Source of the DNA: an uncultured Gammaproteobacteria bacterium | GTDB taxonomy: Bacteria > Patescibacteriota > Patescibacteriia > CAZSQN01 | Assembly (NCBI GenBank): GCA_964609095.1 | Contig: CAZSQN010000002.1 | Span: forward strand, 152,066 to 216,065 | Direction of reading: 5' to 3' | DNA length: 64,000 nt | Shown here: positions 23,016-57,275 of the stretch, piece by piece | Layout of the letters: each line of letters starts with the position of its first letter | Position numbering within the stretch: position 1 is the stretch's first letter | Notes under the pieces: model-generated | Database searches by the model: none | The model's input: the letters and a program-made list of their open reading frames with translations, nothing else | What the model was told of the DNA's origin: nothing | Made by a program: the position numbers and the translations under genes

Positions 23016-23021
23016 TTGGAT

Positions 23022-25256
23022 TTATTTGTTCTCCATCGTCTTCAAAAACAATTCCGCCTCGTCTCTGTAAGACGGGTCCAATTTTGCCGCCAAAAGCGCC
23101 TCTTCGCGCGCGTCCTCCCAGCGTCCGATTTCTTTGTAAACAACGGCTAATTGGGCGTGGATGTCGGCCCGCTCCGGCGCCGCCTCCAGCGCGGCTTCCA
23201 AATAAAGCTGGACTCCGAAATAATTTTTTTCTCTGGCCATTAAGGTGGCGAGAATCAAACGATTTTCAACCTCGTGCGGAATAAATTTTTTCCTTGCCGC
23301 TTCCAAAAGCTCTCTGTCCGCGCTAACAATATCTCCCGTTTCGCGTAGCATTGCCCCGTAATACCAATGCGCTTCCCCCACCTCCGGCTCCAATTCCACC
23401 ATCTTGCGGTAAATCTCCTTGGCGTCTGGAAGCCGCCCTTGCAACACCCGCAATTTAGCCAGGCCGAACCATGTTTGCTGGCGCTTGGGCGAAAGGGCAA
23501 TAGCCGCCTCAAATTCTTTCTCCGCTTCATCATTAAAAGACGGGTCATAGTTAAGCGCTTCAGTGTATAATCTGGCCAGCAGATAGTGATAATAAACGTG
23601 CAACGGGTGGCGGGCGATGTTTGCCTCAAGCGCGCGCCGGGCAAAATCAAAATAATCCTGAAACTGTTCCGGCGGTATTGATTTTTTGATTAAAACGCCC
23701 ACCACAATCTGCGCCGCCTGCGTCCGCGTTTCCTCCTTATATGGAGTCGGCAATTTTAACGCTTCGCGAAAAAGAGGAATGCTGCGAACATCGCTGTAAT
23801 CAGTCGCGTAAACAGTTGATTGCAGCATGGCGTCGGAGGCGACCATCGGCTGCCAGTTTAATTTGTAAATCATAATTCCAGACGCCAAAAGCAATATGGG
23901 GAGAAGAAATTTGGAGTTTTGAGTTTTGAGTTTTGAGTTTGTTTCGGATTTCGGGCTTCGGATTTCGGGTTTAAATTCTCCCATCTTCGAACTTCCAACT
24001 TCCGCCCTCTGGTTCACTCCGGAGAGCAAAAACAGAAACAGAAAAAATGAGGCGGGGGAATCAAAAGCAAACAGATTTTGGATAAAATACATCAGAAGCC
24101 CTATAGAAAAAATCCGGCCTGTCAAAGCGCCCCGCCAGAGCCGATAAAACGCGTAGCCCAAAAGCGTGAGATAGGAAATAAGTCCGAGAACTCCGGAATG
24201 AATCAATGTCTCCAAAACAATATTGTGCGGCCTGTCCCACCATGTTTCATAATATGAAAAGCGCAAAAGAGACGGATTGTAATACTGATTAAAGGCGATG
24301 GGAAAATTCTCCTGGCCCCAGCCCAAAAGAGGCCTCGCGGCAATGCCCTTAAGCGCGACCTGCCATCCCAAAAAACGGGTGGTAATAGTCACTTCTTTTA
24401 AGGAGGTGACGGAAAAACGCCGCAAAGCCGGAATTGACTGAAAAGAAACCGGACCTTTGCTTAAAGATAAAAACAAAGCCATTGCCAAAATAAAAACGCC
24501 GGAGGCAACCGCGGCTATTTTTAGCCGGCGCGAAATCCTTGTTAAAACAAGGGCAACAAGCGAAAATACCAAACCGGCTGCAAGAGCTATAAGCGCGCCG
24601 CGCGTCTTGGTGGCCAAAATCATAATGATAAAAAAAGCCGCGGCCAAAAAAGCAAACCATCGGCGCCATCCGCTTTTTCTAAAAGCCAAATACAAGGCAA
24701 ACGGCAGATACAGAATAAAGGCGGCGGCAAGAAAAATAGGATTACCCAAAGTGCCGGCAAGGCGAAATCCCAAATCAACGCCGAAAATAAGAATGTTCCA
24801 CAAGCGCAAAAGAGCGACAATGCCCAAGGCAATACCTCCAAGCACGGCAATAAAATACGCGCGCTCCTTCCATTTTTGCTCGCCAAAAACAGAACGCGCC
24901 ATTAAAAAAAATACAATCGCGTGCAGCTGGGTGATAAGTCCCATGCCTCTTTCTTCCGTTCCCCAAAAACTGCGCAGAGAGTCAACTCCTAATACTCCCG
25001 CCAAAACGCTCACGGCAAAATAAGCCAGTAAAAGTTTAGAGAGAGTGTCAAACTTCGGCCTGTATTCCGGCGCGCCGACTATCAAAACTATAAATAACGC
25101 CAAAAATAATTCAACCGTTGCTTGCAAAAAAACAATCTTGCCGAAAACAAACGGATAAATTGTCCAGGGGGTTACGGCAAGCGGCAGGAAAAAAATAACA
25201 AACAAAAGCCCCCAGCGCAAAATGCTCAAAATTAAATTTTGATTGGATTTTGTCAT
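23022..25256 (-). CDS. Wzy_C + TPR membrane protein, paralog 3
   Basis: LGWGQENFPIAF, WWDRPHNIVL; low-complexity linker encoded by short tandem DNA repeats around 23915-24000. Confidence 0.7.
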   Translation of the reverse strand: MTKSNQNLILSILRWGLLFVIFFLPLAVTPWTIYPFVFGKIVFLQATVELFLALFIVLIVGAPEYRPKFDTLSKLLLAYFAVSVLAGVLGVDSLRSFWGTEERGMGLITQLHAIVFFLMARSVFGEQKWKERAYFIAVLGGIALGIVALLRLWNILIFGVDLGFRLAGTLGNPIFLAAAFILYLPFALYLAFRKSGWRRWFAFLAAAFFIIMILATKTRGALIALAAGLVFSLVALVLTRISRRLKIAAVASGVFILAMALFLSLSKGPVSFQSIPALRRFSVTSLKEVTITTRFLGWQVALKGIAARPLLGWGQENFPIAFNQYYNPSLLRFSYYETWWDRPHNIVLETLIHSGVLGLISYLTLLGYAFYRLWRGALTGRIFSIGLLMYFIQNLFAFDSPASFFLFLFLLSGVNQRAEVGSSKMGEFKPEIRSPKSETNSKLKTQNSKFLLPILLLASGIMIYKLNWQPMVASDAMLQSTVYATDYSDVRSIPLFREALKLPTPYKEETRTQAAQIVVGVLIKKSIPPEQFQDYFDFARRALEANIARHPLHVYYHYLLARLYTEALNYDPSFNDEAEKEFEAAIALSPKRQQTWFGLAKLRVLQGRLPDAKEIYRKMVELEPEVGEAHWYYGAMLRETGDIVSADRELLEAARKKFIPHEVENRLILATLMAREKNYFGVQLYLEAALEAAPERADIHAQLAVVYKEIGRWEDAREEALLAAKLDPSYRDEAELFLKTMENK

Positions 25257-27494
25257 TGCCGGTTGGAAAGGTCCTCCACCGCGCCTATAAATTCTTCCAC
25301 ATCGGCGCGCCTTCCCGGATCAAGCGTAATTGCCTTAAACGCCTCGGCTCTGGCTTCGTCAAATCTGCCTACGCTGGCGTAAACCGCCGCCAGCCGCAGA
25401 TGCAGGCCCGCGTCATTTGGCTCGGCTAGAGAGAGCCGTTCCAAAATCGGAATTATTTTTTCATACTTCCCGCGCGAGGCGTAAAAATCAACCACAAAAT
25501 TAATGCGGCGGATAACGCTCGCGCGAACATCTTGAAGATTGGAAACATAATTAGTCGCCGCCGCCTTGTCAAAGGCCACTTCAGCCGCGTCATATTCTCC
25601 GGCGGCAACAAGCGCCATGCCATACATCCAATATGACTCGCCGTGCTCGGGATTGGCAAGCGACAGAGCTTTAGCGCGCGCCACCGCTTCCGCCGCATTC
25701 CCGCGAGCCAATTCCATTTGCACGCGCATAATGGCTGTTGTCTGCCTGCCGGGCGCCAGCGCTTCGGCGCGATTAAACATTTCTTCTGATTTTTGGAAAT
25801 ACGCGCCGTCAAGATATTCGCCGGCAAGAGAAAAAATCTGCGCCGAACGGTAAACAAGAGGATAAACTTGCGGATGCGCGTTGGCGGATTTCTCCAGATA
25901 AGCCGCAAACTCCGGAAGAATTGATTTGGTTACGGGAACCGGAATAACTCCGGCCGCGTCGCCTTTTAAGATATCATCGGCAAAAATCTTGGCAATCTCA
26001 TCGTGAAGCGCCGTTTGCGTCCGCAGAGCCGATAAAAAATCTTTTTTGAATTTTTCAAAATCCCGCTGTACAACGTCTTTTTCCGCGCGAATGGCGTAAT
26101 AAGAGGCCTTAACGGGCAAAATCGCTCCGGCCCAAAGGAGCCATAAAATAACAAAAAAACTTAAATACCGTCCGGCTCTTCCCAGAACAAAACCAGGTGC
26201 CGCGGCGCTTTGCTCCGAAAAAATTTGAACATCAATAAAGGCAAGCATGGCCGCAAAAAGAATAAGCGCGCCAAAAGTGTCAAAAAGAAAAAATCCCTGT
26301 CCCAAATAACCCATAAGCCCGCCGGCTAAAAGCCCGGCCTCGCTTATGGGAAGCTGGAAGCTGGAATCCGGAAGCTGGGATATTTTACGGCGGCAAATGA
26401 GCCAAATTGGAATTGCAAAAAGAGCGATAAAAGAAATAAGCCCGACAATGCCGCTACTGCCCGCGATTTCCAAAACAAGATTATGCGGCCGGTCTGACCA
26501 CGTTTCGGAATAAGAGTATTTTAACAATTCCGGCCGATAAAACCGCGAGAACATTATCTCATAATTTTCCGGTCCCCATCCCAGCAGAGGTCGCGCCTTA
26601 AATCCGTCCAGCGCGATTTGCCAGTTGATGATTCTGGTTTCGGCCGTTCCTTCGCGCAGGAGCGAGCCCAGCGCTTTTCCAGGCGCGCTCTCGCGGCCTA
26701 AACCAAAATAGATAAACAATGAAGCGGCAATAAGGACAATCGGCAAAACAACGCCGGCAATGCCTAAAATCCGCGCGAAACGCCGACGCGAAAAGATAAG
26801 CAAAATCAAACCGGTTGTGAGCGCGCCCAAAAACAGTCCCATTATGGCGCCGCGGCTTCCGGCGGCAAAAAGCGCCGCGGTTTCGGCAACAATAACAACC
26901 GTCAAAAAAATTTTAATCTTGCGGCCCCTCTCCCGAGAGAAAAGCAGGGCGGTGAAAAAAATAATTAAAACAAGATAGCCGGCAAAAAAGCTGGGATTGC
27001 CGAAAGAACCGAAAAACCAATCGCCCGAAGAGCCAAAAAGGCGCGAGCCGGCGCCGGTGAATTTTTGCGCAAAACCGATAATCGTTCCCAGGCCTCCGGA
27101 GACGGCTATCATTCGCAAAAATTGAAGCTGTTTGCCGCGGCTTAAAAGCGCCTGCCTTAAAAGCAGAAAAAACAAAAAAAGAAAAATAAAAAAAATCGTG
27201 CCGGTTCCGCGCATTTGGTCGCCCCAAAAACTTTTCTCCGGATTCTCTCCCAAAAAGCCGGTAAAAAGCCGGATTAAAATATAAGCGCCAAAAACATAAA
27301 AAACAGCCGTAATGTTTAATCTAAACCCGCTCCCGGAAAAAACAAAAACAAGAAAAGACAAACCAATGATTGTCTCAAAAATGGCTTCCTTGCCCGAGAG
27401 ATGGGGAAAAAGCACGCCCGGAGTAATAATAAGCGGCAGGAAAAATACGGCTAAAAGCGCGCCACGGATTGCTTTTTCAATTTTCTGCTGATTC
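25253..27494 (-). CDS. Wzy_C + TPR membrane protein, paralog 4
   Basis: LGWGPENYEIMF, WSDRPHNLVL. Start set at MNQQKIEK; the longer tool ORF extends into the MITE-like element. Confidence 0.7.
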
Positions 27495-27500
27495 ATAAAT

Positions 27501-27663
27501 ATAACTGATATTAGGTTTATGAAGAATTGTTTTATAAATTTAGCCAAAAATTTAGGTTTAAACTTTGCCAGTTATTTGTCATTCCCGCGAAAGCGGGAAT
27601 CTACGGGTTCAAATTCTGGATTCCCGCTTTCGCGGGAATGACATAAAAAACCCAATATCAGTT
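27501..27663. mobile_element. MITE-like 163-bp element, copy 1, 16-bp terminal inverted repeats AACTGATATTAGGTTT / AAACCCAATATCAGTT
   Basis: Seen directly. More than 95% identical to 37319-37478. Contains the palindromic core GTCATTCCCGCGAAAGCGGGAAT...ATTCCCGCTTTCGCGGGAATGAC (two GAAA/TTTC tetraloop hairpins). Lies 6 nt upstream of the start codon of the gene at 25253..27494. Confidence 0.75.
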
Positions 27664-27852: not shown

Positions 27853-30800
27853 TTAGTAGGAGAGCGTCTTACCGACAAGCGGCAAGCTGTCAACATCAGT
27901 CAGGTTGGTGATGTATTCATCAGACCACTGAACTGGCGACTGACCGCCGGTCGCGCCTGTCTGGATGCCCACCGACAAGGTGTCGTTGGCTCCAATGTCG
28001 CTGTTGGAAGTATCCAAAGTGACAATGACGGTGCGAGAGCTATTACCCGCGATTTCAAGGTCAGTGAGGTTTCCTTCAGTAAGCTGCGTGTCCTGGGCAA
28101 ATCCTCCGCCTGTGTGGTTCATCGTTGTGGTGGCAAGCAGGTTAGCCGCGTCAACTGTCTCTTTATAGATATTCATTACTGCTCTTGTGCCGCCAATCGG
28201 GAGCGAGATGCCGGATGAGTTCACATCAAGGTTCAACTGCTTCAAGGTGATAGTGTAACCGCCCGGACTGGTGTTAGTGAACACAAACTTGGCAACCGTT
28301 GCTTCAGAGCTCTTGGTCTGGAGTCCTGATGGAGCGTCAGAGGCGTGAGCAACCGTGAGCTTGGACTTGAGCACATCAAACACAACCGCTTTAGCTCCGC
28401 CGCCGGTAGTACCGGTTGTAGGACCGATTATCAAACCGGCAGTGGCTGTGGCTCCGCCTTGAGTAATCTTAATGCCCGAGCCCTTGCCTGTTGCTTCTAC
28501 CGCATCATTGAAGCCGGACGTCGCACAATCCCAGTCACCGGTTGAACCAACTGTTGCGTCGCCAGCGAGAGTTCTGCCGCATGGAGAACCTTCCGCAGCG
28601 CTGTCATGAACAGTGGTAGAAGCGCCACCCATCACAAAGAGACGGTGAGTAGAAGATGACTGTCCGCCGTCCGCAAATGGGGTAAGGTCAGCTTTAACCG
28701 TAAGGGTCAGGTTGCCTCCCTTTGGCACTATTAGTCCGCCGCCGGAAAGACCGGTAAGGTCAAATACCGCGAGCGGCACGCTGGTGTTGTAGGTTGTGGT
28801 ATCCAGCGAGGCAAGCGAGCCCAAAAGCGTTGAGCCGTTCCACAGCTTCACGTTCTTAAGAGTACCAGTGGAGTTAAACGGCACCGCGGTGTTAGTGGTC
28901 ATATCATCGGCAACCACAAGCTTGGTGACCAAGATGTCTTCAGCGTTGGACTCTTCAGCCAGTTTGAACTTGGCAAATACCTGTTCGGAAGAGCCAAGCG
29001 TTAGCTGGGAAGCGGCCGGATCGCCGGAAACAGAAGTCACGCGCAGCATTCCCTTAGTGGCAATGAAGAGATCCTGGAGCGAAACATCAGTGGTATAGCT
29101 TGTATCAGTTGAAGTGGTAACGCCGGTGGCAGTCACTTTGTCCGCGATAACTTCGCCGTTTACGTCATCAGTATTCACATTAGAAACAGCCGCCGTGGTG
29201 CTCTTAATGTCAGCATAGACATCAATAACTATTTGTTCACCAATGCCAACGCGAAGCGACGGCGATACGGTAAACTCGTAAGTTGTTGAGTCGGTGTCCG
29301 TAAGAGTGCCGACTGTTGTGCCGAGCTGGGTAGTGCCCTTCTTCAATTTCATATTGATGAAGTAGTCGGCAAGGGTCACAGTGTCGCTTGTTGTATCAAC
29401 GTCATCCTTCAAAGTAACGCCGGTGATATCCGATTCTTCAGCTCCGCCGGTAATGACAAACGAGCCAATGCGCACGCCGGTCAAGCCGGGCACGCCAAGA
29501 GGCCTGGCGGATGTGTAGCTGGCCAAGCTGGTATTCTTAGTGACAGTCAGAAGGCCAGAACCAACCGTTACTGTTCTGCCGGAAACCGCGGAAGTGCTAA
29601 TGGCCGTAAGCGAAGTGCGTCCTTTGGCGTTGGACGAACCAGCTACCAAAGCGGCGCTTAATGTTTCGCCGCCGGCAACTGTCGCGTCTGTCAAGTCAGC
29701 CCTGTATTCAAGCACTTTGGTTGTCCCGGCCGCAATGGTAAAGGTGTTGCCAAAGCTGAAGTCAGTGCCGGTTTCGCTCGTGTCATCGCAGTCATCAGTT
29801 GATTGCGTAGTGCCGACCTGCGAACCGCCAAGGGTAAGCTTGATGTTGTCAAGGTTGTTAGTGGTGTCAGAGCTGTTGCAGGAAGTGTCCAAAGTATCAA
29901 CTTGAACGTCTTCGCCGGCAGCAGTCAAATTCCACTTAGCCAAAAGCACATTGGTCGCTCCGTCAGGCACATTGCCGGCTGGAGCGTCCGGATGAATTTG
30001 GATGGTGAGCGAGCCAGTGTTGATGGTGGTCGCGCCTCCGGCTTGAGTTACGGTAAAAGCGGCGGAATCGCTGGCAAGCACGGTCTCAACATTGTAGTTG
30101 AGGTCCCAAGCCACAATATCGGTTGTGTTCTGCACCGAGAAGCGATAAGTGCGATTTGTTCCGCCTTTAATGTCGCCGCGAAGCGATAACTGCTTGGTTG
30201 TGCCCGAAAGCATCTTCAAGCCGCCATCAGCCATTCCGGAGAGATCAAGCGCAAGCTTGCCGTCGCCCAATTGCGCGGCTGTCGCGCCCAACTGCGTGGC
30301 GCCGTCCATCAGCTTGATGTTCTGAAGGTCGTCAGAATCAACCGAGCCAACATTGGTCAAGGTTACGCGCTTAACAAGCATGTTCTGGTCGTTGGCATCA
30401 AACTTAAAGCGCCAGAGCTCAAAGTTGTCTTGCGGGTCAACAGTTGTTGCCGCGCCCGGAGAAACGTTGGCAACTTCAACATAGCCAAGGTCAGTGACCG
30501 AAGCCACGGTGAATTGATTGCCGACTGCCGAGCCGGAAACCGATGAAGCGTCAGAAGTAACATCTGCCGAAGCCAAGCTCCAGGCAACTGTTTTTCCGGA
30601 AGTGGTGTTATTGTCAATATCCATCTTCAAGGTTACATCCTTTGAACCGCCAGCCGGAACAGTAAAGAGTCCGGAAGTATTTTCAAAGGTGGCTACCCCT
30701 TGAGAAAGCGACTGGTTTTGCGTCAGACGAGTGTCGCCGTCATAGAGGTAGAGCGCGTCAATGTCAGAATCGGCCGTAATGCCGGTCCTGCGAACCAAAA

Positions 30801-31533
30801 GTTTGGTGACTTTTGCCGCCGCGCCGCTTGAAGCAAAGCGCATCTTTAACACTACGGCTCTCTGCGAGCTGCCATTGGTGTCATTGTCAGAGTCAGCGAC
30901 AATGGAACCGCCGGCCGGACTGTCAGACGCCGCGCTCACTTGAAGCGCTCCGCCGCCAGCTCCGCCTTCGGCAAGTCCCTTGTCAGAGTTAATGGTTGTC
31001 GCAGAATCCATTTGCGCCGCTTTATCAAAATCGGATGCTGAACTAACCGCCGAACCAACAGTGTAGTTGGTGAAGAAAGCATCCGGTACATCGTCAATTT
31101 GCGTATTCCAATTCGCTCCGTAAAGCGAAGTAGCGACTGCCTCGGAGGCAACATGCCTCAAGACGCCGCCTTTTGCCACCGCGTAAACCTTGGGGTCAGT
31201 GGTGATTTTCACCATTTTGACGCCCGGGCGATAGGTGGCATTGCCGCCAATGGTGACCGCGGCCAATTCCGCATCGGTTACTGTTTTCACCGTGGAAAAG
31301 TCCGAGTACCATGTCTTGTATGTTTTTTCATTCGGGAATACGTAGCGCTTGCCATCCCCGCCGTAGTAATAAACGGCCGGGAGCGAGGCCTTAATCAAAT
31401 CACCGGAAGAAAGAGCAGCCGCTTTTGCCGTTAAAGGCACGATAAAAGTGGCAAGCCCAATTGACCAGGCAATGGTTGATACGGCCACGCCGATGTGGAG
31501 CGCCCGTTTCCCAATCTGTAACGTGTTAGTCAT
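27853..31533 (-). CDS. large secreted cell-surface protein, Ser/Thr/Gly/Asn-rich with repeated beta-sandwich-like modules (S-layer/adhesin-like)
   Basis: 1226 aa, N-terminal signal peptide (hydrophobic stretch ending TAKA/AA). Recurring module ..V.KLLV....DSDD...L.DG.TQLG. appears at least 5 times. Roughly 20 N-x-S/T sequons, very high T/S content. Confidence 0.65.
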   Translation of the reverse strand: MTNTLQIGKRALHIGVAVSTIAWSIGLATFIVPLTAKAAALSSGDLIKASLPAVYYYGGDGKRYVFPNEKTYKTWYSDFSTVKTVTDAELAAVTIGGNATYRPGVKMVKITTDPKVYAVAKGGVLRHVASEAVATSLYGANWNTQIDDVPDAFFTNYTVGSAVSSASDFDKAAQMDSATTINSDKGLAEGGAGGGALQVSAASDSPAGGSIVADSDNDTNGSSQRAVVLKMRFASSGAAAKVTKLLVRRTGITADSDIDALYLYDGDTRLTQNQSLSQGVATFENTSGLFTVPAGGSKDVTLKMDIDNNTTSGKTVAWSLASADVTSDASSVSGSAVGNQFTVASVTDLGYVEVANVSPGAATTVDPQDNFELWRFKFDANDQNMLVKRVTLTNVGSVDSDDLQNIKLMDGATQLGATAAQLGDGKLALDLSGMADGGLKMLSGTTKQLSLRGDIKGGTNRTYRFSVQNTTDIVAWDLNYNVETVLASDSAAFTVTQAGGATTINTGSLTIQIHPDAPAGNVPDGATNVLLAKWNLTAAGEDVQVDTLDTSCNSSDTTNNLDNIKLTLGGSQVGTTQSTDDCDDTSETGTDFSFGNTFTIAAGTTKVLEYRADLTDATVAGGETLSAALVAGSSNAKGRTSLTAISTSAVSGRTVTVGSGLLTVTKNTSLASYTSARPLGVPGLTGVRIGSFVITGGAEESDITGVTLKDDVDTTSDTVTLADYFINMKLKKGTTQLGTTVGTLTDTDSTTYEFTVSPSLRVGIGEQIVIDVYADIKSTTAAVSNVNTDDVNGEVIADKVTATGVTTSTDTSYTTDVSLQDLFIATKGMLRVTSVSGDPAASQLTLGSSEQVFAKFKLAEESNAEDILVTKLVVADDMTTNTAVPFNSTGTLKNVKLWNGSTLLGSLASLDTTTYNTSVPLAVFDLTGLSGGGLIVPKGGNLTLTVKADLTPFADGGQSSSTHRLFVMGGASTTVHDSAAEGSPCGRTLAGDATVGSTGDWDCATSGFNDAVEATGKGSGIKITQGGATATAGLIIGPTTGTTGGGAKAVVFDVLKSKLTVAHASDAPSGLQTKSSEATVAKFVFTNTSPGGYTITLKQLNLDVNSSGISLPIGGTRAVMNIYKETVDAANLLATTTMNHTGGGFAQDTQLTEGNLTDLEIAGNSSRTVIVTLDTSNSDIGANDTLSVGIQTGATGGQSPVQWSDEYITNLTDVDSLPLVGKTLSY

Positions 31534-33657: not shown

Positions 33658-33951
33658 ATGAACCAACCCGATAATGTAATAAGATTATCAATCAGCGAAG
33701 CAGGCCGGATTTTTGGTGTTAATCCGCAAACAATAAGACGGGCGATTAAAGCGCGGGAAGTGACTTATGTTGTGGTAAGGGGGCGCTATAAACTCAATTT
33801 TGAAAGTATTCTTAAATGGTCGCAAAAGCATGCCGGGGTTAAAAACAAACTGCAAAACCGCGGCATTGGGCAATTTGTTTCCGGTTGGAAAATAAACAAT
33901 CCCTTATACTCGCCAAATCCGGCTATTTTTAAAAAAACAAATGACAAATAA
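33658..33951 (+). CDS. excisionase-family helix-turn-helix DNA-binding protein
   Basis: LSISEAGRIFGVNPQTIRRAIKAREVTYVVVRGRY matches Xis/MerR-type HTH (TIGR01764-like) layout. Confidence 0.5.
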   Translation: MNQPDNVIRLSISEAGRIFGVNPQTIRRAIKAREVTYVVVRGRYKLNFESILKWSQKHAGVKNKLQNRGIGQFVSGWKINNPLYSPNPAIFKKTNDK

Positions 33952-34072
33952 AAAACGCTTGAGAGGTCTGGCATATAAACCAAAAAGAGGAGGAGGACTT
34001 CTTGGCAATACACCAAACCAATCAAGCGTTTTTTGTTAGTTTGACCTTACTATAAAAATCTATATTCGTCAA

Positions 34073-37995: not shown

Positions 37996-38383
37996 GGGGG
38001 ATGCAGGGTTTCGATCAGGAAGTTCCTTTAAACAATCACGTCGGGGGCCATACCCCGTTATAAATAGGAATCTATTACGTGCAAACGTATTTTCTAGAGT
38101 GAAGAGCGCGTTGGCGAAAGCTTTTGCGACTCCTTCGCTCGTTATGGTCGCGGCCTAAAACCGCTTCCCATCCGCCCTGTTGACGTCCGATAAATAGGGG
38201 CCGGGTGTCATATTTCGGGCCTTTGCGCAAAGCATCCTCGTATGCGAATCGTAGATTAGAGGATCGGACGCGATGAACTCTGTCCGCCTTTATCATCGCG
38301 TTCAAAATTGAGACGGACTAACGTGCAGTATTGTTTAAATTCTCTTCTTGAGACGCGGGTTCAACTCCCGCCATCTCCACCAA
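37996..38383 (+). ncRNA. ssrA: tmRNA (ssrA)
   Basis: 5' GGGGGGATGCAGGGTTTCGA..., 3' tRNA-like end ...GCGGGTTCAACTCCCGCCATCTCCACCA. Internal in-frame tag reading frame from GCA AAC ... ending ...LVMVAA then TAA. Immediately downstream of smpB. Confidence 0.85.
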
Positions 38384-39010: not shown

Positions 39011-39084
39011 ATAGGGTATAGGGTTTAGCGTTTAGGGTTTAGAAAAATTCACTGAACGCTATACGCTAACCGCTGAACGCTAAA
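39011..39084. repeat. tandem-heptamer hairpin, family C copy 1 (GTTTAGC/GTTTAGG arms)
   Basis: gggtttagcgtttagggtttag ... cgctatacgctaaccgctgaacgctaa; fills the infC-rpmI intercistronic gap. Confidence 0.7.
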
Positions 39085-39287: not shown

Positions 39288-39356
39288 AGGGTAGAGGGTT
39301 TAGCGTTTAGGGTTTAGGCAAAAAAATCTAACCGCTAAACGCTAACCGCTAAACGC
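39288..39356. repeat. tandem-heptamer hairpin, family C copy 2
   Basis: gggtttagcgtttagggtttagg ... ctaaccgctaaacgctaaccgctaaacgc; fills the rpmI-rplT gap. Confidence 0.7.
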
Positions 39357-39364
39357 TATTATTT

Positions 39365-39851: not shown

Positions 39852-39885
39852 CCCCTCCGAACTTATTCGGAGGGGTTTTGTTTTA
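39852..39885. terminator. bidirectional intrinsic terminator cccctccgaa-ctta-ttcggagggg flanked by A/T runs
   Basis: 10-bp GC stem; T-tract TTTTGTTTT on plus, A-tract upstream. Between convergent rplT and protease genes. Confidence 0.65.
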
Positions 39886-40650
39886 AAGAGCCGGAGGGCT
39901 GGCATGGACGCCGCGCCTGTTAACGCGGGGGGCTTGTCTGTTTAACCTGTTTCGCAGCAGTCCTTCGGCCGCCCTTTCTATAGGCACGGCAAAAGTGACC
40001 AAATCAACAGCCACGCTTCTTGGCGGGGATGAGGTGACTATGCCCACAAGCCGCCCCCGCTCGTCAACCACCGGGCCGCCGGAAGCGCCTCCCCGCACAG
40101 GCATCAGAATCTCCATTCTGTTAGACGCCATTTCCGAAAAGGGATTGACGAGCGCTCCGGCCGTCCAACCGGTATCGTCCATGCCCACCCGCCAGAGCAG
40201 GTCGCCCCGTTCTATTTCATTCATATTTCCCAAACGGAAAAATTTCGTTTCAGTCCGCCTTTTAAGGCGCAGGAGCGCCAAATCATTTGGCGGATCACGG
40301 GCCACAAGCTCGGCCTCTTCTTTTTCGCCGCACTTGATCGCGCTATGTTCCGCTTCCAGAACGCATCTATGAACATAGACGGCCGCAAACTGTCCGCCCA
40401 AAACATGATTGGCGGTAAGAATTAAACCGTTGCCGGAGACAAAAGCTCCGGTTCCTTTATTGGTAAAAGTTCCGGAAGTATTGCCCAAAGAAACAACTTC
40501 AATCATTGCCGAACGTTCAACCGCTGACGCCAAAAAAGCATTGCCGTTATCGTCAAACGGGTATCTGTCAAGCCAACGGATATTGGCGCGCGAGGCGCAG
40601 CAGGAAGAGATAAAAATTAAAAACAACCAAAGTCCTTTGCCATACCTCAC
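39883..40650 (-). CDS. secreted trypsin-like serine protease (S1 family)
   Basis: Signal peptide; catalytic triad motifs TANHV, DLALLRL, GGASGGPVV. Confidence 0.7.
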   Translation of the reverse strand: MRYGKGLWLFLIFISSCCASRANIRWLDRYPFDDNGNAFLASAVERSAMIEVVSLGNTSGTFTNKGTGAFVSGNGLILTANHVLGGQFAAVYVHRCVLEAEHSAIKCGEKEEAELVARDPPNDLALLRLKRRTETKFFRLGNMNEIERGDLLWRVGMDDTGWTAGALVNPFSEMASNRMEILMPVRGGASGGPVVDERGRLVGIVTSSPPRSVAVDLVTFAVPIERAAEGLLRNRLNRQAPRVNRRGVHASPPAL

Positions 40651-40974
40651 TTTTTTCTCCTTGCCCCGAGCGCTTTGAGGGGCTTTGTCAATGTACTACC
40701 CAGACATTAACAAAAAACTCTATTAAAATCAATCAGCATCGCGCTAGCGCGCAATTGAGGAAAACAAAAAACAGATTAAAAAACAAACTGGTCCGATCGG
40801 ACCAAAGTATTATCTGTAAAAAAATTTTAATATTTAAAATATGAAATTAATTGTATTCCCAATCCCCTATTACTTGCTATAGCAAGTAATAGGGGACAGA
40901 TGATATCTTTCCTTCCAAAATTAAAAACGCCCGCCTCTCCGAAGAGAAGCGGACGCAAAGAGCTAATGAGAAAG

Positions 40975-41382
40975 CTAATTGGCGGAAATGTCCGCGCCGC
41001 GGCGCCTGGATGGCGCAAAATGCGTCTTTGTTTCCGCCACATACTTCCGGTGTCGTTCCAAGCGCGAACGCAGTTCGCAAATTTCCGCTGAAACGCCGCT
41101 TCGCTCCTGAATCTTTTGCGCCAACTCGCGGCGGCCGGCTTCTCCGCGCTTCAGGCTAAGCATGGAGATTTCCGCGTCCAAAGCGGCATAGCGCAAACTG
41201 CGCTGGCGAAGCACCGCGCGAAGCGCTTTGCCGCGAAGCTCCAGCTCGCGGAGGTAATCATCCGGACGGAGCAGCTTCGCGCGCCGCTTTTCCCGCCGTT
41301 CCATCAAGTAGACGGCGAGAAAAAGCAAGCCGCAAAAGATGATGAGAACAAACGTGTACGTGTGCCAGTTCTGCCAGACCAT
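40975..41382 (-). CDS. hypothetical membrane-anchored coiled-coil protein (GC-rich island)
   Basis: N-terminal TM helix then Arg/Glu/Leu-rich heptad-like region; high GC3. Confidence 0.35.
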   Translation of the reverse strand: MVWQNWHTYTFVLIIFCGLLFLAVYLMERREKRRAKLLRPDDYLRELELRGKALRAVLRQRSLRYAALDAEISMLSLKRGEAGRRELAQKIQERSGVSAEICELRSRLERHRKYVAETKTHFAPSRRRGADISAN

Positions 41383-41410
41383 TTGGTCCTCCTTTGGTTA
41401 TTGGAAGGAA

Positions 41411-42097
41411 CTACCAGTTCTCGCAGTTCAACGCGCGCTGTCCCGGCGTCAAACGATTGCCGTCGCACATGAGCTTGGTAATCTGCTCCACGCCCTGGCG
41501 CGGATTGCCAGCAACCAGAGCGCAAGACCCGTAGTCCTCTGCGTGCTCCGAAGGAGTTACCACAATGAAGTGGTCGCCGGTTCCGCTCAAGTCGGAGCAG
41601 AGCTCGGCGCCTAAATCAATGCACTCCTCCAGCCCGCTATCGCTCTGCAGCGGCTCGTCTGTGAAAAGAACGATGACGCGCTCGGCTTCCTCGTCCCAAG
41701 TGAACGGAAGTTCGCCAGTAGCCAGATCGGAAACCGCCTCGAAAGTCGGCTCCGTTCTGAAACCGCGCCATTCACGTGTGGCAGATCGGAAAGAGAAGGC
41801 AAAATCAGTGAAAGCAACGAGTTCCGAGTAAATTGACGGGTTGAAATCCGTCTTGCCCTCTTGCGAGACCGTCACGATTCCCATGCGGACGGACTCGTCC
41901 GCGAAAATCCACCAGCGCGACGCATAGGCGTCTTCGATGGCGTTGTGCGTTCTCTCCATGGAAGGACTTGTGTCCACGACGAATACGATGTTGTATGCTG
42001 GCTGGACACACTGCTCGCCATAGGCCGCCTGCGCCAAAGGCGCAAACGAGAAAACGACACACACGGCCACGAACAAACGAATGTTCCAGAGTTTCAT
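41411..42097 (-). CDS. secreted von Willebrand factor type A (vWA) domain protein
   Basis: Signal peptide ending AQAA; MIDAS-type DxSxS motif VVDTSPSM early in the mature chain. Confidence 0.55.
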   Translation of the reverse strand: MKLWNIRLFVAVCVVFSFAPLAQAAYGEQCVQPAYNIVFVVDTSPSMERTHNAIEDAYASRWWIFADESVRMGIVTVSQEGKTDFNPSIYSELVAFTDFAFSFRSATREWRGFRTEPTFEAVSDLATGELPFTWDEEAERVIVLFTDEPLQSDSGLEECIDLGAELCSDLSGTGDHFIVVTPSEHAEDYGSCALVAGNPRQGVEQITKLMCDGNRLTPGQRALNCENW

Positions 42098-42210
42098 CTG
42101 CTTTTCTCCTTGTTTGTCGAAGGTCTAAGCTCATCACACCTATTGTGATGGCCTTAGATTTCGGGGCGAGTGATTTTTAAGCACTCGCCCTGGGTCAAAA
42201 GAACTTGTTG

Positions 42211-42489
42211 TTACTTTTCGTCACAGTGGCAACAATGTACAACACCGTCGCCATCGCAGTGAAAACAGAGATCATCGGAGGCACCGCTGTTGGTGCTGAA
42301 AACGCCGTTACCTGCGCAATCGGGGCAAATGATATACCCCTTATCGTTGCAGAGACGGCAGCTCACTGCCCGTTCTCGGCAGAAATTTGCGCACCATCCA
42401 TTCAAATTCTTCTCGCCGCCGCACTTGGAGCAGCGATCGGCAGTGAAGATGCGCTGGCCGATCTCCAAACCGTGTTCACAGGCCGCCAT
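42211..42489 (-). CDS. small cysteine-rich protein with four CxxCxGxG motifs (DnaJ-type zinc-finger-like)
   Basis: CSKCGGEK, CRLCNDKG, CPDCAGNG, CFHCDGDG plus terminal HCCHCDE. Chosen over the antisense 299-aa plus-strand ORF because of this motif periodicity. Confidence 0.5.
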   Translation of the reverse strand: MAACEHGLEIGQRIFTADRCSKCGGEKNLNGWCANFCRERAVSCRLCNDKGYIICPDCAGNGVFSTNSGASDDLCFHCDGDGVVHCCHCDEK

Positions 42490-42501
42490 TGTCTTCTCCT
42501 T

Positions 42502-42981
42502 TCATGGCAAAATTATTTCGCATCCCGGAGCATGGACGAGGTGGGGCATATCGTCAATGATCTGGACGCCGGTAATTCCCAGCGCCTCAAAATCCTTGGC
42601 GAGCTTAAACCTCTCCTCATCTTCTCCGTTTACTACCACCGTAAAAGTTTGAATGACCTTGTTCGGAGGATTCAAGATCAGCCGCGGACGCGGCAAGGAA
42701 GCGAAACGACCCTTCTCAAAGAAGAAATCTCGCGCTCCCGCCGGATTCCAGGTCTGGATGATGAACGGCTCCTCGGCCAGAAACTCGTGAAGCAACTTGC
42801 CGCAGAGCCAATCGCGGCCAGTCCATCCGTTGTCGTCGGAAATGGTCTGGTCAAAATCAATGAAGCGGCGGACGCTTCCGATGATCTCACGGACTTGCTC
42901 GCCCGTGAGCGTGGCCGGATTCGGCCAGGCCACGAAATCAAGCAAATCGTGATCAGAGAACATGATTTTTTCCTTTTTCAA
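42502..42981 (-). CDS. hypothetical protein (GC-rich island)
   Basis: 159 aa, no recognisable motif; co-oriented and tightly spaced with neighbours. Confidence 0.35.
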   Translation of the reverse strand: MKKEKIMFSDHDLLDFVAWPNPATLTGEQVREIIGSVRRFIDFDQTISDDNGWTGRDWLCGKLLHEFLAEEPFIIQTWNPAGARDFFFEKGRFASLPRPRLILNPPNKVIQTFTVVVNGEDEERFKLAKDFEALGITGVQIIDDMPHLVHAPGCEIILP

Positions 42982-43074
42982 AGATTCCTCTTAATCCCCC
43001 TCCGCAGAATTGCAGAGAGGAACTTAGTGGGAACCCCGACAAAGAAATATGTCGGGGAGTTGGAAAGAACATTT

Positions 43075-43476
43075 TCAGCGACGGGAAGCGTAGGCGAAGC
43101 TTGAACGCTGCCGGATGGCCGTGTAGCCGTTCACGATGACGAGGGGCTTGCGCATTGCCTCTTCCAGAATCTGGCGGATGCGCCCTTCGTTGCGGCTGGA
43201 AAGCCGCGGGGCGATGACCGTCACCTTGACGGTGGTGGCGCCTGGATGTGGAAGAACATCCACGAAGAGCTCGAAACGCGGAAGAATCCGCGCAAGCTCA
43301 TCGCGCACCGCAACCGCGTAGGTTTGGGCGACCACGCGGCCACCGGTGACCACCTGAACCTCGTGATGCAAGGGCTCGGCATCGGCCTCGCTAATGAAAG
43401 CGAAGAAAGCCGCGGCCAAGAGGGCTCCGAGCGCGAACGCGAACAACAATTTGCTCTTCATCTCTTTCCTCCTCAT
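43075..43476 (-). CDS. hypothetical secreted protein (signal peptide)
   Basis: Signal-peptide-like N-terminus (hydrophobic stretch ending ADAE); ATGA overlap with the upstream gene. Confidence 0.35.
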   Translation of the reverse strand: MRRKEMKSKLLFAFALGALLAAAFFAFISEADAEPLHHEVQVVTGGRVVAQTYAVAVRDELARILPRFELFVDVLPHPGATTVKVTVIAPRLSSRNEGRIRQILEEAMRKPLVIVNGYTAIRQRSSFAYASRR

Positions 43477-43976
43477 CTTGCGTTGTTTGTTCTCTGAACT
43501 CGCGCCGTTCTCAAAACGATGACGCGAGCAAGATGTTCCTCTTGCGGAACGGCCTTGTTCGCGTTTCCGCCGGCCTTCTCTTCCGCGAGAAAGTTGAACT
43601 TTGCTCGCAAAGAGTCCTGCCAGGAAAGAAGCCGACCCATTCCGTCTGAAGGCAGGTTTTCGCCCTCGTTCTTGGCGGCGGAGAAGATGCTGATGAGCCG
43701 AGAAACACGGAGCATCTCCCCAAAGATTTCGTCCATTTGCCTTTCTCTCTCTTCCCTTTTGAGGTCAGAGAGCAGGACCGACGCGGAAGGCGGGTTGAAC
43801 GCAACCGACCACACCTCGCGCTTTCGGAACCGAACGGCCGGCGTAGTGAAAGCTTTCACCGTCAGCACGAAACAAAACCCGATTGCAAACAGCGCGTACA
43901 TGCAGTAGACCACTTTATCCTCCTTGCCCCCAACGAAGTCGAGGGGCTTGTTGTTGAATGTCCTATGAGCTCCCAA
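43473..43976 (-). CDS. hypothetical membrane-anchored protein; first gene of island operon
   Basis: TM helix (YALFAIGFCFVLTV) then charged region; start uncertain (the Met at 43901 is equally plausible). Confidence 0.35.
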   Translation of the reverse strand: MGAHRTFNNKPLDFVGGKEDKVVYCMYALFAIGFCFVLTVKAFTTPAVRFRKREVWSVAFNPPSASVLLSDLKREERERQMDEIFGEMLRVSRLISIFSAAKNEGENLPSDGMGRLLSWQDSLRAKFNFLAEEKAGGNANKAVPQEEHLARVIVLRTARVQRTNNAR

Positions 43977-44067
43977 TCACCATGATTGATTTCTCAATTG
44001 GATTTCCAAATGTTTTTAACATACACACATTTGGCAGATTTTTTAATAACTGTTATATTATATTTAT

Positions 44068-44433
44068 ATGAACAATGAGCCAACAACCAATGAAGTTCTT
44101 GAAGCAATCAACACTCTGTCAACTCATATTGATGAACGTTTTACGCGAGTTGAAAATGATATCACTGGCATAAAAGGTGATATCACTGGCATAAAAGGTG
44201 ATATCACTGGCATAAAAGGTGAGATTATCGAAATCAAGGCCACCATGGTTACTAAGGATTATCTTGATGACAAACTTGCAGATTTGCGAGGCGACCTTGT
44301 GGTCTTGATGCGCAAGGAAGACAAAAAGGTTCAGAGTTTGGTGGAATTGCTTCACTCTAAAAAAGTCATTTCCGAAGAAGAAGCCAAGCGCATTCTCTCC
44401 ATGGATCTTTTTCCGCAAGTTTCTCTGCGATAA
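44068..44433 (+). CDS. hypothetical protein containing three perfect tandem DITGIKG heptapeptide repeats
   Basis: Perfect 21-bp x3 DNA tandem repeat at 44157-44219 (gatatcactggcataaaaggt); remainder predicted helical/coiled-coil; AT-rich. Confidence 0.45.
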   Translation: MNNEPTTNEVLEAINTLSTHIDERFTRVENDITGIKGDITGIKGDITGIKGEIIEIKATMVTKDYLDDKLADLRGDLVVLMRKEDKKVQSLVELLHSKKVISEEEAKRILSMDLFPQVSLR

Positions 44434-44460
44434 TTACTTGCAGAAAAGATTTTACTTTTG

Positions 44461-44490
44461 CGCCCCGCGTAGGCGGGGTGTTTTTATTTT
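44461..44490 (+). terminator. intrinsic terminator cgccccgcgtaggcggggtg + TTTTTATTTT
   Basis: 8-bp GC stem, T-tract; 28 nt after the 44068..44433 stop. Confidence 0.65.
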
Positions 44491-44826
44491 CTTTCCTTTC
44501 CTCCTTATTCTCCTAGTCGTGCGACTAAGCGACTATTTGAATGTCCGCTCGCCAGTTCGGCGAGCGGTCGCTGATGTAGCGACCGAATCTCGCAGACCGC
44601 TACGCACCATGCGTAACGACCTATGAATTCGCCCCCACAACCAATTTTCATTGGTGTGAGGGGTAAAGGGCGAGTGGTTTTACAACCATTTCAATTGCCT
44701 CATAAAGAGCTTTATTTGTATTTATTACTATAGCACACTGGGGATAAGTTGTCAAGGACATATAGACGATTTTAGAGTGAAATAGTCATTTTAAGCCATT
44801 TTTTATGTTAAAAATACCTAACAAAA

Positions 44827-44850
44827 TACCCTCTTATCAGAGGGTATAAC
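44827..44850 (-). terminator. intrinsic terminator for thrC (taccctc-ttatcag-agggta then U-tract on minus strand)
   Basis: Hairpin directly after thrC stop; minus-strand downstream sequence ttttgtt. Confidence 0.5.
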
Positions 44851-56083: not shown

Positions 56084-56217
56084 GCGGATTCCGGGACTTC
56101 TCGCTTTGGACTCGCCCGAAGAGATAAAAATGAAAACCCCTCCGATGGACATCGGAGGGGTATTTTGTTGGCGGGATTTATTCTTGGATGTAGCGCTCTC
56201 TCCAAGCGGACACATCT
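56084..56217. repeat. 134-bp direct repeat DR2
   Basis: Identical to DR1; overlaps the last 13 codons and stop of the metzincin gene at 56178. Confidence 0.85.
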
Positions 56218-57275
56218 GCGTCTGAAACGCAGGTTCGCCTGGTAAGCGACGGGTTCATTACCGCCTCGCCGCAAAAGAACGGAACATGGTCAACGCCCTG
56301 AGTGTGGGCGAGTTCGTGGCTGGCTACGGCAGTCATCCACTCCTCGGCTGCCGCGGGCTCCTCCGGCATGCAGTCAAGATTAAACTCAACCGCATAACGG
56401 CCGTCCAAACCGTCATAATCGCGGTAAGTAAAGCCCGCGACGCCGCAGCGTTCGGACTTGTACTCGCGCACGACCACTTCGGCGTCTTCACGCGAGCTGG
56501 CGCGAACGCAAGAAGCATGCACCGGCGTCCACCACGAGCAGCCAGAAAGCACCTGCTCGCTCCATGCTAGAAGCTCCGGCTCAAACCAGACGCTGATGGC
56601 AATGGTTTCTCCGCCAGTTTCGGAAGCGCAGCTCATCGGCTCTTCGTCAGGTGGCGCGGGCTCTGGCGGAGGCGCAACATCGTCGCCGCAGTCCAGAACC
56701 GCCTCGCCCGAATCCAGCAGAGACGAAGTGTGGTAGCGCTCGGTAAAAGCCAAGCGGTCACCCTCGCTAATGGCGGAAAGCAGCGTGAACGGCTGATGTC
56801 GCTCAATCGCCGGGTTCATCACCGCGTTGCCGCAGAAGGCAGGCACATCGGAAATTCCGAACAAGTGTCCGATCTCATGAGCAACCAAGTGAGTGAACCA
56901 CGGCCTGATATCCGACGGAAGGCAAGGATAGGCGGAGTTAATCCAAACGCCTCTTTTCCTGTCGTGGTAATCGCCAAGCGCGCCGACAAAGCCGTCTTCG
57001 CGGCAATCCCAATCAGAGTAGAAGTCAACGTAAATGTCCGCTTCCTCCACCGTTTCCGCAAGAGAGCAAGAAACACCCACCGTCTCCCACATCTTGCAGC
57101 CCGCGAGAGCTGCCTCGTTCGAGGCCTCCTGCCCGCCCCAAGGCGGGTCAAAAACGGCAATGGCAAGCTGAACGGTCTCGTTCAGCGGTTCGGACTTGCC
57201 GCAAACAGGCGGCAGCGGCTCGCGCCAAACACAGCCAAAACAAGCAAAACCCAGAGCAAAAATCGCGTTTTTCAT
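56178..57275 (-). CDS. lipoprotein with two metzincin-type zinc-protease modules
   Basis: Lipobox-like LGFACFGC; HEIGHLFGISD and HELAHTQGVDH (HExxHxxGxxD/H) each followed by a Met-containing turn (AVMNP). Confidence 0.6.
   Translation of the reverse strand: MKNAIFALGFACFGCVWREPLPPVCGKSEPLNETVQLAIAVFDPPWGGQEASNEAALAGCKMWETVGVSCSLAETVEEADIYVDFYSDWDCREDGFVGALGDYHDRKRGVWINSAYPCLPSDIRPWFTHLVAHEIGHLFGISDVPAFCGNAVMNPAIERHQPFTLLSAISEGDRLAFTERYHTSSLLDSGEAVLDCGDDVAPPPEPAPPDEEPMSCASETGGETIAISVWFEPELLAWSEQVLSGCSWWTPVHASCVRASSREDAEVVVREYKSERCGVAGFTYRDYDGLDGRYAVEFNLDCMPEEPAAAEEWMTAVASHELAHTQGVDHVPFFCGEAVMNPSLTRRTCVSDADVSAWRERYIQE

Follow-up and report, generated by a model that had tools for sequence, protein, structure and literature searches.

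Bacteria of the candidate phyla radiation (CPR) are tiny episymbionts whose surface repertoire is thought to decide to which hosts they can attach, and most of their accessory genes are unannotated. Small accessory genes are known from integron arrays and from clusters of attC sites lacking integron-integrases (CALIN), in which a structured element of about 60-140 nt, better conserved in structure than in sequence and sometimes without an open reading frame (ORF), follows each of a series of small, co-oriented and mostly orphan ORFs, whose composition departs from the backbone and whose content varies between relatives. Translation of neighbouring genes can be coupled by long-range sequestration of the Shine-Dalgarno (SD) sequence, as in the MS2 coat-replicase pair and in ribosomal-protein operons such as rpmI-rplT; there, a sequence closing the first cistron base-pairs with the ribosome-binding site of the second, and a terminating or translating ribosome opens the helix. 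Likenesses to both kinds of system were found in a GC-rich island of six small genes, g1 to g6, on the minus strand (43976 down to 40975) of a 64,000-nt stretch of DNA (contig CAZSQN010000002.1, positions 152,066 to 216,065; hereafter the window), which matches the Candidatus Uhrbacteria (CPR) contig JACOZF010000008.1 (313.5 kb, GCA_016181485.1). Unlike in MS2 or rpmI-rplT, the pairing at this locus closes a conserved three-way junction which is portable between unrelated genes and occurs in several genomes, its function being predicted. Nothing on CPR integron-like cassettes or on Uhrbacteria von Willebrand factor A (vWA) proteins was found in the literature searched.

With moderate confidence, the island is interpreted here as a lineage-restricted, cassette-like accessory operon in the genome of an uncultivated, groundwater-type Candidatus Uhrbacteria bacterium which has been horizontally exchanged and whose junctions are translationally coupled. 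The original prediction, made from the letters and ORFs of the window, had described a horizontally acquired surface or stress module with six co-oriented, tightly spaced genes and a jump in GC content and in GC at third codon positions (GC3). The six minus-strand ORFs were recovered at the coordinates given there, and the same six genes are called in public assemblies, with shorter starts for three of them, namely g1 (GTG at 43913, 146 aa), g2 (ATG at 43461, 128 aa) and g3 (ATG at 42963, 153 aa). The compositional jump was also borne out: island GC was 0.557 compared with a window mean of 0.482 (z=3.06), which ranked first among all 3-kb segments, and the GC3 of the six genes was 0.62-0.75 against 0.515±0.054 for 46 background ORFs, with four of the six exceeding every background gene. 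This is the atypical base composition of a classical genomic island. Synonymous-codon likelihood was clearly deviant (z about -2.5) for g1 and g2 only. A strong intrinsic terminator (40927..40956, minus strand; 13-bp stem with 8 GC pairs, then TTTTTAATTTT) lies directly 3' of g6, and the six genes therefore form one transcription unit which ends before the protease gene downstream. All contigs with identical proteins were 100% identical to the window and ended at a 32-nt palindrome left of the island or at a 21-nt tandem repeat right of it; these ends are assembly breaks, not strain variants. One of the identical sequences, a 3-kb contig (L002/L019; GCA_016176695.1, JACOWP010000037.1), carries a g6 record (MBI2003187.1) labelled Candidatus Wildermuthbacteria, which is probably a binning or labelling inconsistency.

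The junctions within this operon carry a structured intercistronic element of about 110 nt which is previously undescribed and probably links the translation of the neighbouring genes; a search of Rfam 15 gave no relevant match to it at the gathering threshold or at E<=1. It opens with a pyrimidine box, followed by the GC hairpin H1, the conserved segment CGAAWTC...AG, a second, long arm and a closing ...TTCG, and it ends with the SD and the start codon; the sequence of the second arm differs between copies with its pairing kept. In unrelated genes the stop codon is followed within 0-6 nt by the box (GTTCYTTYCAAY), which often overlaps the TAG. Two exact copies occur in the window (about 0.06 expected from base composition), both of them after island stop codons, and five further copies were found in 4.5 kb of relatives, compared with a background of three in 1.23 Mb of unrelated DNA. 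Between g2 and g3 (variant C; 42961..43072, minus strand) an exact box (GTTCTTTCCAAC, 43059-43070) 4 nt past the g2 stop is followed by a CCCCGAC hairpin, a second arm and an SD; box and SD region form a helix in the minimum free energy (MFE) fold, the score with the covariance model (CM) R1 is 18.5 bits (E=0.015-0.02), and the hairpin recurs behind other genes in loci L006 and L007. Between g4 and g5 (variant A; 42095..42206, minus strand) a degenerate box, hairpin H1 (GGGCGAGTG/CACTCGCCC) and a P1-P2-H2 arm precede the SD AAGGAG of the vWA gene. This copy folds with an MFE of -38.1 kcal/mol (z=-4.76) and scores 104.5 bits with CM R1, and it is kept upstream of the vWA gene in L005 and L007 and behind g3 in L022. 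The short junction between g5 and g6 (41380..41413, minus strand) comprises an exact box (TAGTTCCTTCCAAT, 41400-41411) that overlaps the g5 stop and then the SD AAGGAGG, with a weak CM match of 11.7 bits.

Conservation of the RNA structure was seen in several analyses. Independent MFE folds paired the box with the downstream SD, enclosing two other helices, in all eight complete junction copies; the pairing was missing from the copies cut by contig ends (L006C and L007C) and from the ORF-less copy L022A. RNAalifold of five copies gave 33 pairs, 10 of them with compensatory changes. CM R1, which was trained on five copies, recovered copies outside its training set at L022 667-780 (E=9e-24), L022 90-172 (E=5e-7) and window 44631-44584 (E=4e-5), as well as the short L005 junction (2e-3) and the g2-g3 junction (2e-2); nothing further was recovered in the window, nor around more distant g3 homologues. 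Since an alignment of all variants with MAFFT misplaced the divergent copies, a CM-guided alignment was used instead, in which 93.7% of cells were paired compared with 75.9% after shuffling (0/500) and at most 51% with partners slid, and 23 of the 33 pairs change on both sides. On the sense strand G-U pairs (25) outnumber A-C pairs (11), which mildly favours structure at the RNA level. Scans of metagenomes and viral sequences with the pattern CGAATTCNNAGN{15,45}GAGATTCG gave chance matches only, and none with the element or island proteins among the matches listed.

Relatives of the locus carry other genes around the same anchor, a gene for a 121-aa coiled-coil protein (rep121) on the right of the island. 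In L023, rep121 and its control region (76% nt identity to window position 43954) are followed by a g3 homologue (g3'), two tiny transmembrane (TM) genes and a TM/coiled-coil gene, and g1, g2, g4 and the vWA gene g5 are not there. In L022, g3 (92% aa identity) lies on the opposite side of rep121; the leader before it is ORF-less in the window (44584-44631), and after it comes the very element that precedes the vWA gene in the window, here without a vWA gene; g1, g2 and g4 are missing as well. The synteny breakpoints coincide with the structured intercistronic element. In its series of co-oriented, cassette-like units whose content varies between relatives, the locus agrees with integrons and CALINs. 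Synteny of the island genes is not conserved elsewhere: among 5.8 billion proteins no other sequence pairs them, including the vWA and CxxCxGxG pair around which the original prediction had built a single module. The three non-identical relatives of g5 among these proteins (78, 72 and 65% identity) each stand beside different small genes, and homologues of g3 on longer contigs are solitary, between unrelated genes, with a GC content that tracks the host genome, unlike that of g3 in the window. A shared, compositionally distinct accessory gene pool fits these observations, because the g5 relatives and most of their neighbours are as GC3-rich (0.68-0.80) as the island, compared with about 0.47 GC in the backbone-like L022 and L023.

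From the atypical composition and the patchy distribution we infer horizontal exchange or acquisition. The operon would have been assembled from independently travelling small-gene units (g1 with g2; g3, perhaps with g4; the vWA gene g5; and g6) located at a variable position beside the conserved rep121. Exchange of units between related populations, rather than one co-evolved machine, is indicated by the raised GC3, by the near lack of homologues and by the differing gene sets of the relatives. Transcription would run leftward from the divergent control region shared with rep121 and end at 40927-40956. The structured RNA joins the units, its box pairing with the downstream SD and closing a three-way junction around H1 and the second, long arm. 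On terminating at the upstream gene, a ribosome would cover the box, melt the box:SD pairing and free the downstream SD, so that translation of the second gene is probably coupled to that of the first, or gated by it. The repeated elements of about 100 nt may in addition supply homology, or sites, for the exchange of units. As to physiology, a variable cell-surface or host-interaction repertoire is proposed as the most likely role.

The six genes encode one secreted vWA protein, three small orphans destined for the membrane or for secretion, an orphan Cys-rich zinc-ribbon protein of the cytoplasm and a candidate phosphatase. The gene g5 (41411..42097, minus strand) encodes, as had been predicted, a secreted protein with a metal ion-dependent adhesion site (MIDAS); it is 228 aa long, its MIDAS is complete, and its mature part has six Cys. 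Its Pfam VWA match (E=1.7e-4) is under the gathering score (22.3 vs 23.8 bits for PF00092; 21.2 vs 27 bits for PF13519), and g5 is a divergent vWA member. The fold itself is clear: an AlphaFold2 (AF2) model (predicted local distance difference test, pLDDT, 73.6) matched 267 PDB chains at E<=1e-3 in Foldseek, with the integrin beta-I and ANTXR2 vWA domains as best matches (probability 1.00), and the MIDAS residues D42-T-S44-P-S46, T118 and D147 do not vary among the four members of the family. Operons that encode a MIDAS-type vWA protein together with small membrane proteins are also known from the vWA-MoxR, BatA-E and TerY-phosphorylation systems. However, g5 is a lone secreted domain with almost no relatives, and profile searches of the six genes and their neighbours found no MoxR AAA+ ATPase, no BatA-E TPR/TM set and no PP2C or kinase. 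The earlier statement that the island has neither an ATPase nor an enzyme partner therefore holds for the partners of these three systems; its enzyme part is doubtful, because g3 has a haloacid dehalogenase (HAD)-type motif set and a trypsin-like protease gene lies directly downstream. The g5 protein is likely a metal-dependent ligand or adhesion module.

The gene g3 (42502..42963, minus strand) encodes a cytoplasmic protein of 153 aa (159 aa when read from an upstream TTG) that belongs to a small, uncharacterised and sharply bounded family of stand-alone proteins of about 145-180 aa. A word-indexed search gave 10 homologues at 35-92% identity, and an exhaustive search of 1.84 billion representatives gave 37 clusters. 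In an alignment of 38 sequences with a mean column identity of 31%, D42 (36/38), D44 (35/38), T46 (37/38), T/S77 (38/38), K129 (38/38), D143 (37/38) and D144 (35/38) are conserved. In order and context these positions agree exactly with HAD motifs I-IV (DxDxT/V; S/T; K/R; DD or DxxxD), all of which g3 carries in sequence. The AF2 model of g3 is confident (pLDDT 90.4), and the order of its predicted strands agrees with a minimal HAD core that has a hairpin where the C2 cap would be. Small capless or C2-mini-cap HAD phosphatases such as HAD_SAK_2 and MDP-1 share with g3 the four catalytic motifs in matching order and spacing (hhhDxDxT ending a strand, T/S ending the next strand, K, and hhhDD), the length of about 150 aa and the hairpin at the C2-cap position; g3 differs from them in a family-specific 38-residue N-terminal extension and a conserved APGC tail, and no profile or significant Foldseek link to HADs was found. 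Against a HAD assignment, searches with single sequences and profiles of g3 gave no sequence match in Pfam, NCBIfam or PDB, Foldseek gave no significant match in PDB or BFVD, and hhalign against one HAD_SAK_2 protein aligned motif I only (probability 14%), so that the assignment would be based on the motifs and the predicted strand order. Taken together, a HAD-like phosphatase is tentatively proposed for g3, a call that we regard as close to evenly balanced. In any case, the family joins HAD-type catalytic residues and a confidently predicted fold lacking a significant PDB match in about 150 aa outside Pfam. In locus L008, the g3 homologue adjoins an M10 peptidase.

The other four genes are orphans and form singleton clusters. 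One N-terminal hydrophobic segment was found in each of g1, g2 and g6 with a Kyte-Doolittle heuristic; the membrane and secretion calls for products other than g5 were made with such hydrophobicity heuristics, and they agree with the envelope targeting originally proposed. The g1 protein (43473..43913, minus strand; 146 aa) has a TM-like segment at its N-terminus; its GTG start, 6 nt downstream of AAGGAGG, lies in an ORF extending to a TTG at 43976, and no match was found in Pfam, NCBIfam, PADLOC or PHROG. The g2 protein (43075..43461, minus strand; 128 aa) has a signal-peptide-like N-terminus (…ADA|EP) and no family match in Pfam or NCBIfam. The g6 protein (40975..41382, minus strand; 135 aa) combines an N-terminal TM-like segment with a charged, helical, coiled-coil-like tail, and its sole match was a weak one of coiled-coil type to LmuB in PADLOC. 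Homology of g2 with a 117-aa protein of L007, and of g6 with a 137-aa protein of L023, was not significant. The cytoplasmic protein g4 (42211..42489, minus strand; 92 aa, 14 Cys) resembles the DnaJ cysteine-rich domain by pattern only. Four CxxCxGxG motifs had been ascribed to it; two are canonical (C55 and C75), two are degenerate (C20 and C44), and there is a fifth CxxC in addition. As in the DnaJ cysteine-rich domain, BSD2 and anti-TRAP, motifs of this type are repeated in a small protein, and profile searches confirmed that g4 has no J domain. It differs from these proteins in having two canonical motifs only and extra CxxC/CxxxC pairs among its 14 Cys, in matches that stay below threshold (GRXCR1-2_C, BSD2_CRD, RtpA and DnaJ; BSD2 at E=0.57) and in having no homologue besides itself.

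Several observations weigh against a horizontally exchanged, translationally coupled cassette operon. The relatives are found on short metagenomic contigs (0.9-1.8 kb) from other samples, which cannot establish orthology of the loci or the direction of gain or loss. A strain with an empty site was not found: a contig scan with the flanking protease gave only distant proteases from other phyla, and an exact look-up with rplT gave the same strain only. The codon-usage deviation is mild for g3-g6. On the RNA side, the outer helix (P0) is weak in the g4-g5 copy of the window and missing from its centroid structure, the CM-guided alignment leans toward the structure of the model and comprises about 9-10 copies, and the similarity of the boxes could merely reflect similar SDs everywhere. 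A rival reading is native, vertically inherited CPR "dark matter", in which the rise in GC3 would come from a local mutational or selective bias and the relatives would differ by ordinary rapid turnover and by poor assembly. In its favour, orphan genes abound in CPR genomes, two other genes of the window are GC3-high (0.656 and 0.626), the codon-usage z-scores of g3-g6 are inside the background range, and no mobility genes or att sites were found. However, a purely native origin seems unlikely to us, given that six genes in a row reach the extreme tail of GC3 or exceed it, that the vWA relatives with their neighbours share this composition and the backbone-like L022 and L023 do not, and that g3-family genes elsewhere track host GC and the window copy does not. 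We think it similarly unlikely that the six genes make up a single coherent module for the envelope or for stress, acquired en bloc and working as a complex centred on the secreted vWA and DnaJ-type zinc-finger proteins. Uniformly raised GC3 in all six genes, tight co-orientation with one terminator, the predominance of envelope-targeted products and coupling leaders that suggest stoichiometric co-production would all be expected of such a module; yet g4 has no homologue, the genes are paired nowhere else among 5.8 billion proteins, the vWA relatives have other neighbours, the g3 homologues are solitary, and four of the six genes are missing from both L022 and L023.

The features shared with integrons raise the question of whether the locus is a site-specific cassette array in which the junction elements act as attC-like folded single-stranded DNA sites for a recombinase encoded elsewhere. 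The elements lie exactly at synteny breakpoints and behind unrelated ORFs, their structure is better conserved than their sequence, ORF-less "empty" copies exist in the window and in L022, the small co-oriented orphan genes are unlike the backbone in composition, and the 3' half of the box, TTYCAAC, matches RYYYAAC at 6 of 7 positions in direct reading. On the other hand, no tyrosine recombinase, transposase or other recombinase was found among the scanned ORFs of the 64-kb window, no GTTRRRY partner box completes an RYYYAAC...GTTRRRY pair at the 3' ends of the elements, the partner of the box in the outer helix is the ribosome-binding site of the gene that follows, the G-U pairs favour sense RNA, the elements match no Rfam family and are unlike attC, and homologous recombination between repeats of about 100 nt could shuffle the units without a dedicated enzyme. 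An array of this kind is therefore improbable. An equally speculative variant, to which we give an equally low probability, is a non-canonical, integron-like system of cassette capture in CPR bacteria, in which each small gene would travel with its folded box-H1-arm element, the empty elements would be free slots and the element would double as a translational coupler, and in which a recombinase elsewhere or recombination driven by natural transformation would shuffle a GC-rich cassette pool among episymbionts. Finally, the longest ORF of the g3-g4 stretch is a plus-strand frame of 299 aa (42205-43104), and the original prediction had allowed that this frame, not g3 and g4, might be the conserved one. 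It was rejected, and the chance that it is a real gene with g3 and g4 as shadow ORFs is close to nil: its GC3 (0.543) is at background level, its codon-usage score is the worst of all (z=-3.0), a Pfam search gave no family match, all public gene calls use the minus frames, and the g3 frame is backed by 37 homologous clusters, coherent in their pattern of conservation, and by an AF2 model with a pLDDT of 90.

A cassette-like operon with coupled junctions would make the locus a concrete example of how CPR accessory genes are organized, namely a variable spot filled with small secreted or membrane genes and a portable structured RNA that seems to keep every ribosome-binding site masked behind the stop codon before it. 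Should either the coupling or the cassette role be true, the element would represent a new class of cis-element for operon assembly in a phylum almost without genetics; if none of this holds, the locus is an ordinary strain-specific patch of orphan genes. Two other origins were considered and rejected. For a prophage or phage origin, IMG/VR held no relatives of the vWA protein or g3, there was no convincing PHROG match, the H1 core was absent from viral contigs and g3 had no fold match in BFVD. For an anti-phage defence system, PADLOC gave nothing but the weak coiled-coil match of g6 and generic protease matches.

On the right, the island begins at a divergent control region (43914..44067) which is shared with rep121 and includes the 5' untranslated region (UTR) of g1. 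The inverted repeat noted in the original prediction (CCAAATGT...ACATTTGG) is present at 44006-44034, a hairpin stands beside the g1 SD, and a promoter scan placed a promoter-like site for rep121 at 44031-44059. The stretch 43954-44148 is kept at 76% nt identity in L023, and the half-sites of the inverted repeat are kept in both L022 and L023. The gene rep121 (44068..44433, plus strand) is the conserved anchor beside the variable gene sets, with homologues in L022 and L023 at 74-76% nt identity. It contains the perfect 21-nt tandem repeat (x3.1; 44157-44222), which encodes DITGIKG heptads; the homologues in L022 and L023 have a different repeat (DVTELKG), and the protein may be variable in length. 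Beyond rep121, a 413-bp non-coding stretch between convergent genes (44434-44850) holds half an H1 hairpin (44668-44681) and several GC hairpins. On its minus strand (44584..44755) a promoter-like site (44755-44727; scan 11/12, with a TG extension) is followed by the leader arm at 44631-44584 (CM R1 27.6 bits, E=4e-5), whose counterpart in L022 precedes the g3 homologue, and by an SD-like AAGGAGG at about 44500, behind which no start codon or ORF was found. This stretch looks like an empty cassette slot or scar, or could be a small RNA gene.

On the left, three perfect palindromes of 12 nt, 16 nt (followed by a T-run) and 32 nt lie at 40741..40895, between the operon terminator and the protease gene. 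They were correctly predicted to be there; as borders of the island they were not upheld, since they look like terminator or regulatory hairpins. The 32-nt palindrome (CCCCTATTACTTGCTATAGCAAGTAATAGGGG, 40864-40895) lies between the operon terminator and the promoter region of the protease gene and has no T-run, so that a protein-binding site is more likely than a terminator; several Logan contigs end exactly there. Immediately downstream, a separate transcription unit (39883..40650, minus strand) encodes a trypsin-like protease with an HtrA-type catalytic domain (Pfam Trypsin_2, E=2e-20). A repeat (D3; 40648-40672 vs 43911-43935) with 84% identity over 25 nt (21/25) connects the 5' UTRs of the protease gene and g1, each time as a GCCCC-loop-GGGGC hairpin abutting AAGGAG and a GTG start, and by this likeness the protease gene may be in the same regulatory or cassette family as g1.

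The composition of the island is compatible with the horizontal acquisition first proposed, and the classical hallmarks of a genomic island were not found with it: in the 64-kb window there is no integrase, no insertion at the 3' end of a tRNA or tmRNA gene and no pair of flanking att direct repeats at the island, the only flanking repeat, D3, being two similar ribosome-binding regions. A tmRNA gene (37997-38382, 114 bits) lies directly after smpB and before infC. A tmRNA-targeted island was rejected, as this gene is 2.6 kb away, with infC-rpmI-rplT and the protease gene between it and the island. Within that operon, similar hairpin-like elements with heptamer repeats (TAGGGTT... facing ...AACGCTA) occur upstream of rpmI (39012-39084) and upstream of rplT (39295-39358); translational operators of the IF3-L35-L20 operon are one possibility, members of a repeat family another.

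Some further features of the window were recorded. A small HTH_17 (excisionase/MerR-like) gene at 33685-33978, some 7 kb away from the island, adjoins a pair of genes for an extracytoplasmic function (ECF) sigma factor and a DUF5667 protein; the stretch in which it lies is low in GC (0.386). A second compositional outlier (56178-57275; GC 0.588, GC3 0.656) encodes a product with a C-terminal matrixin-type (Peptidase_M10) motif, and a 1226-aa ORF at 27853-31533 (GC 0.535) has zero Pfam matches. Finally, a large cluster of glycosyltransferase, epimerase and asparagine-synthase genes (1-18 kb) is followed at 18299-27547 by four tandem paralogues of about 750-810 aa with a Wzy_C (O-antigen ligase-like) domain, three of which also carry C-terminal TPR repeats.

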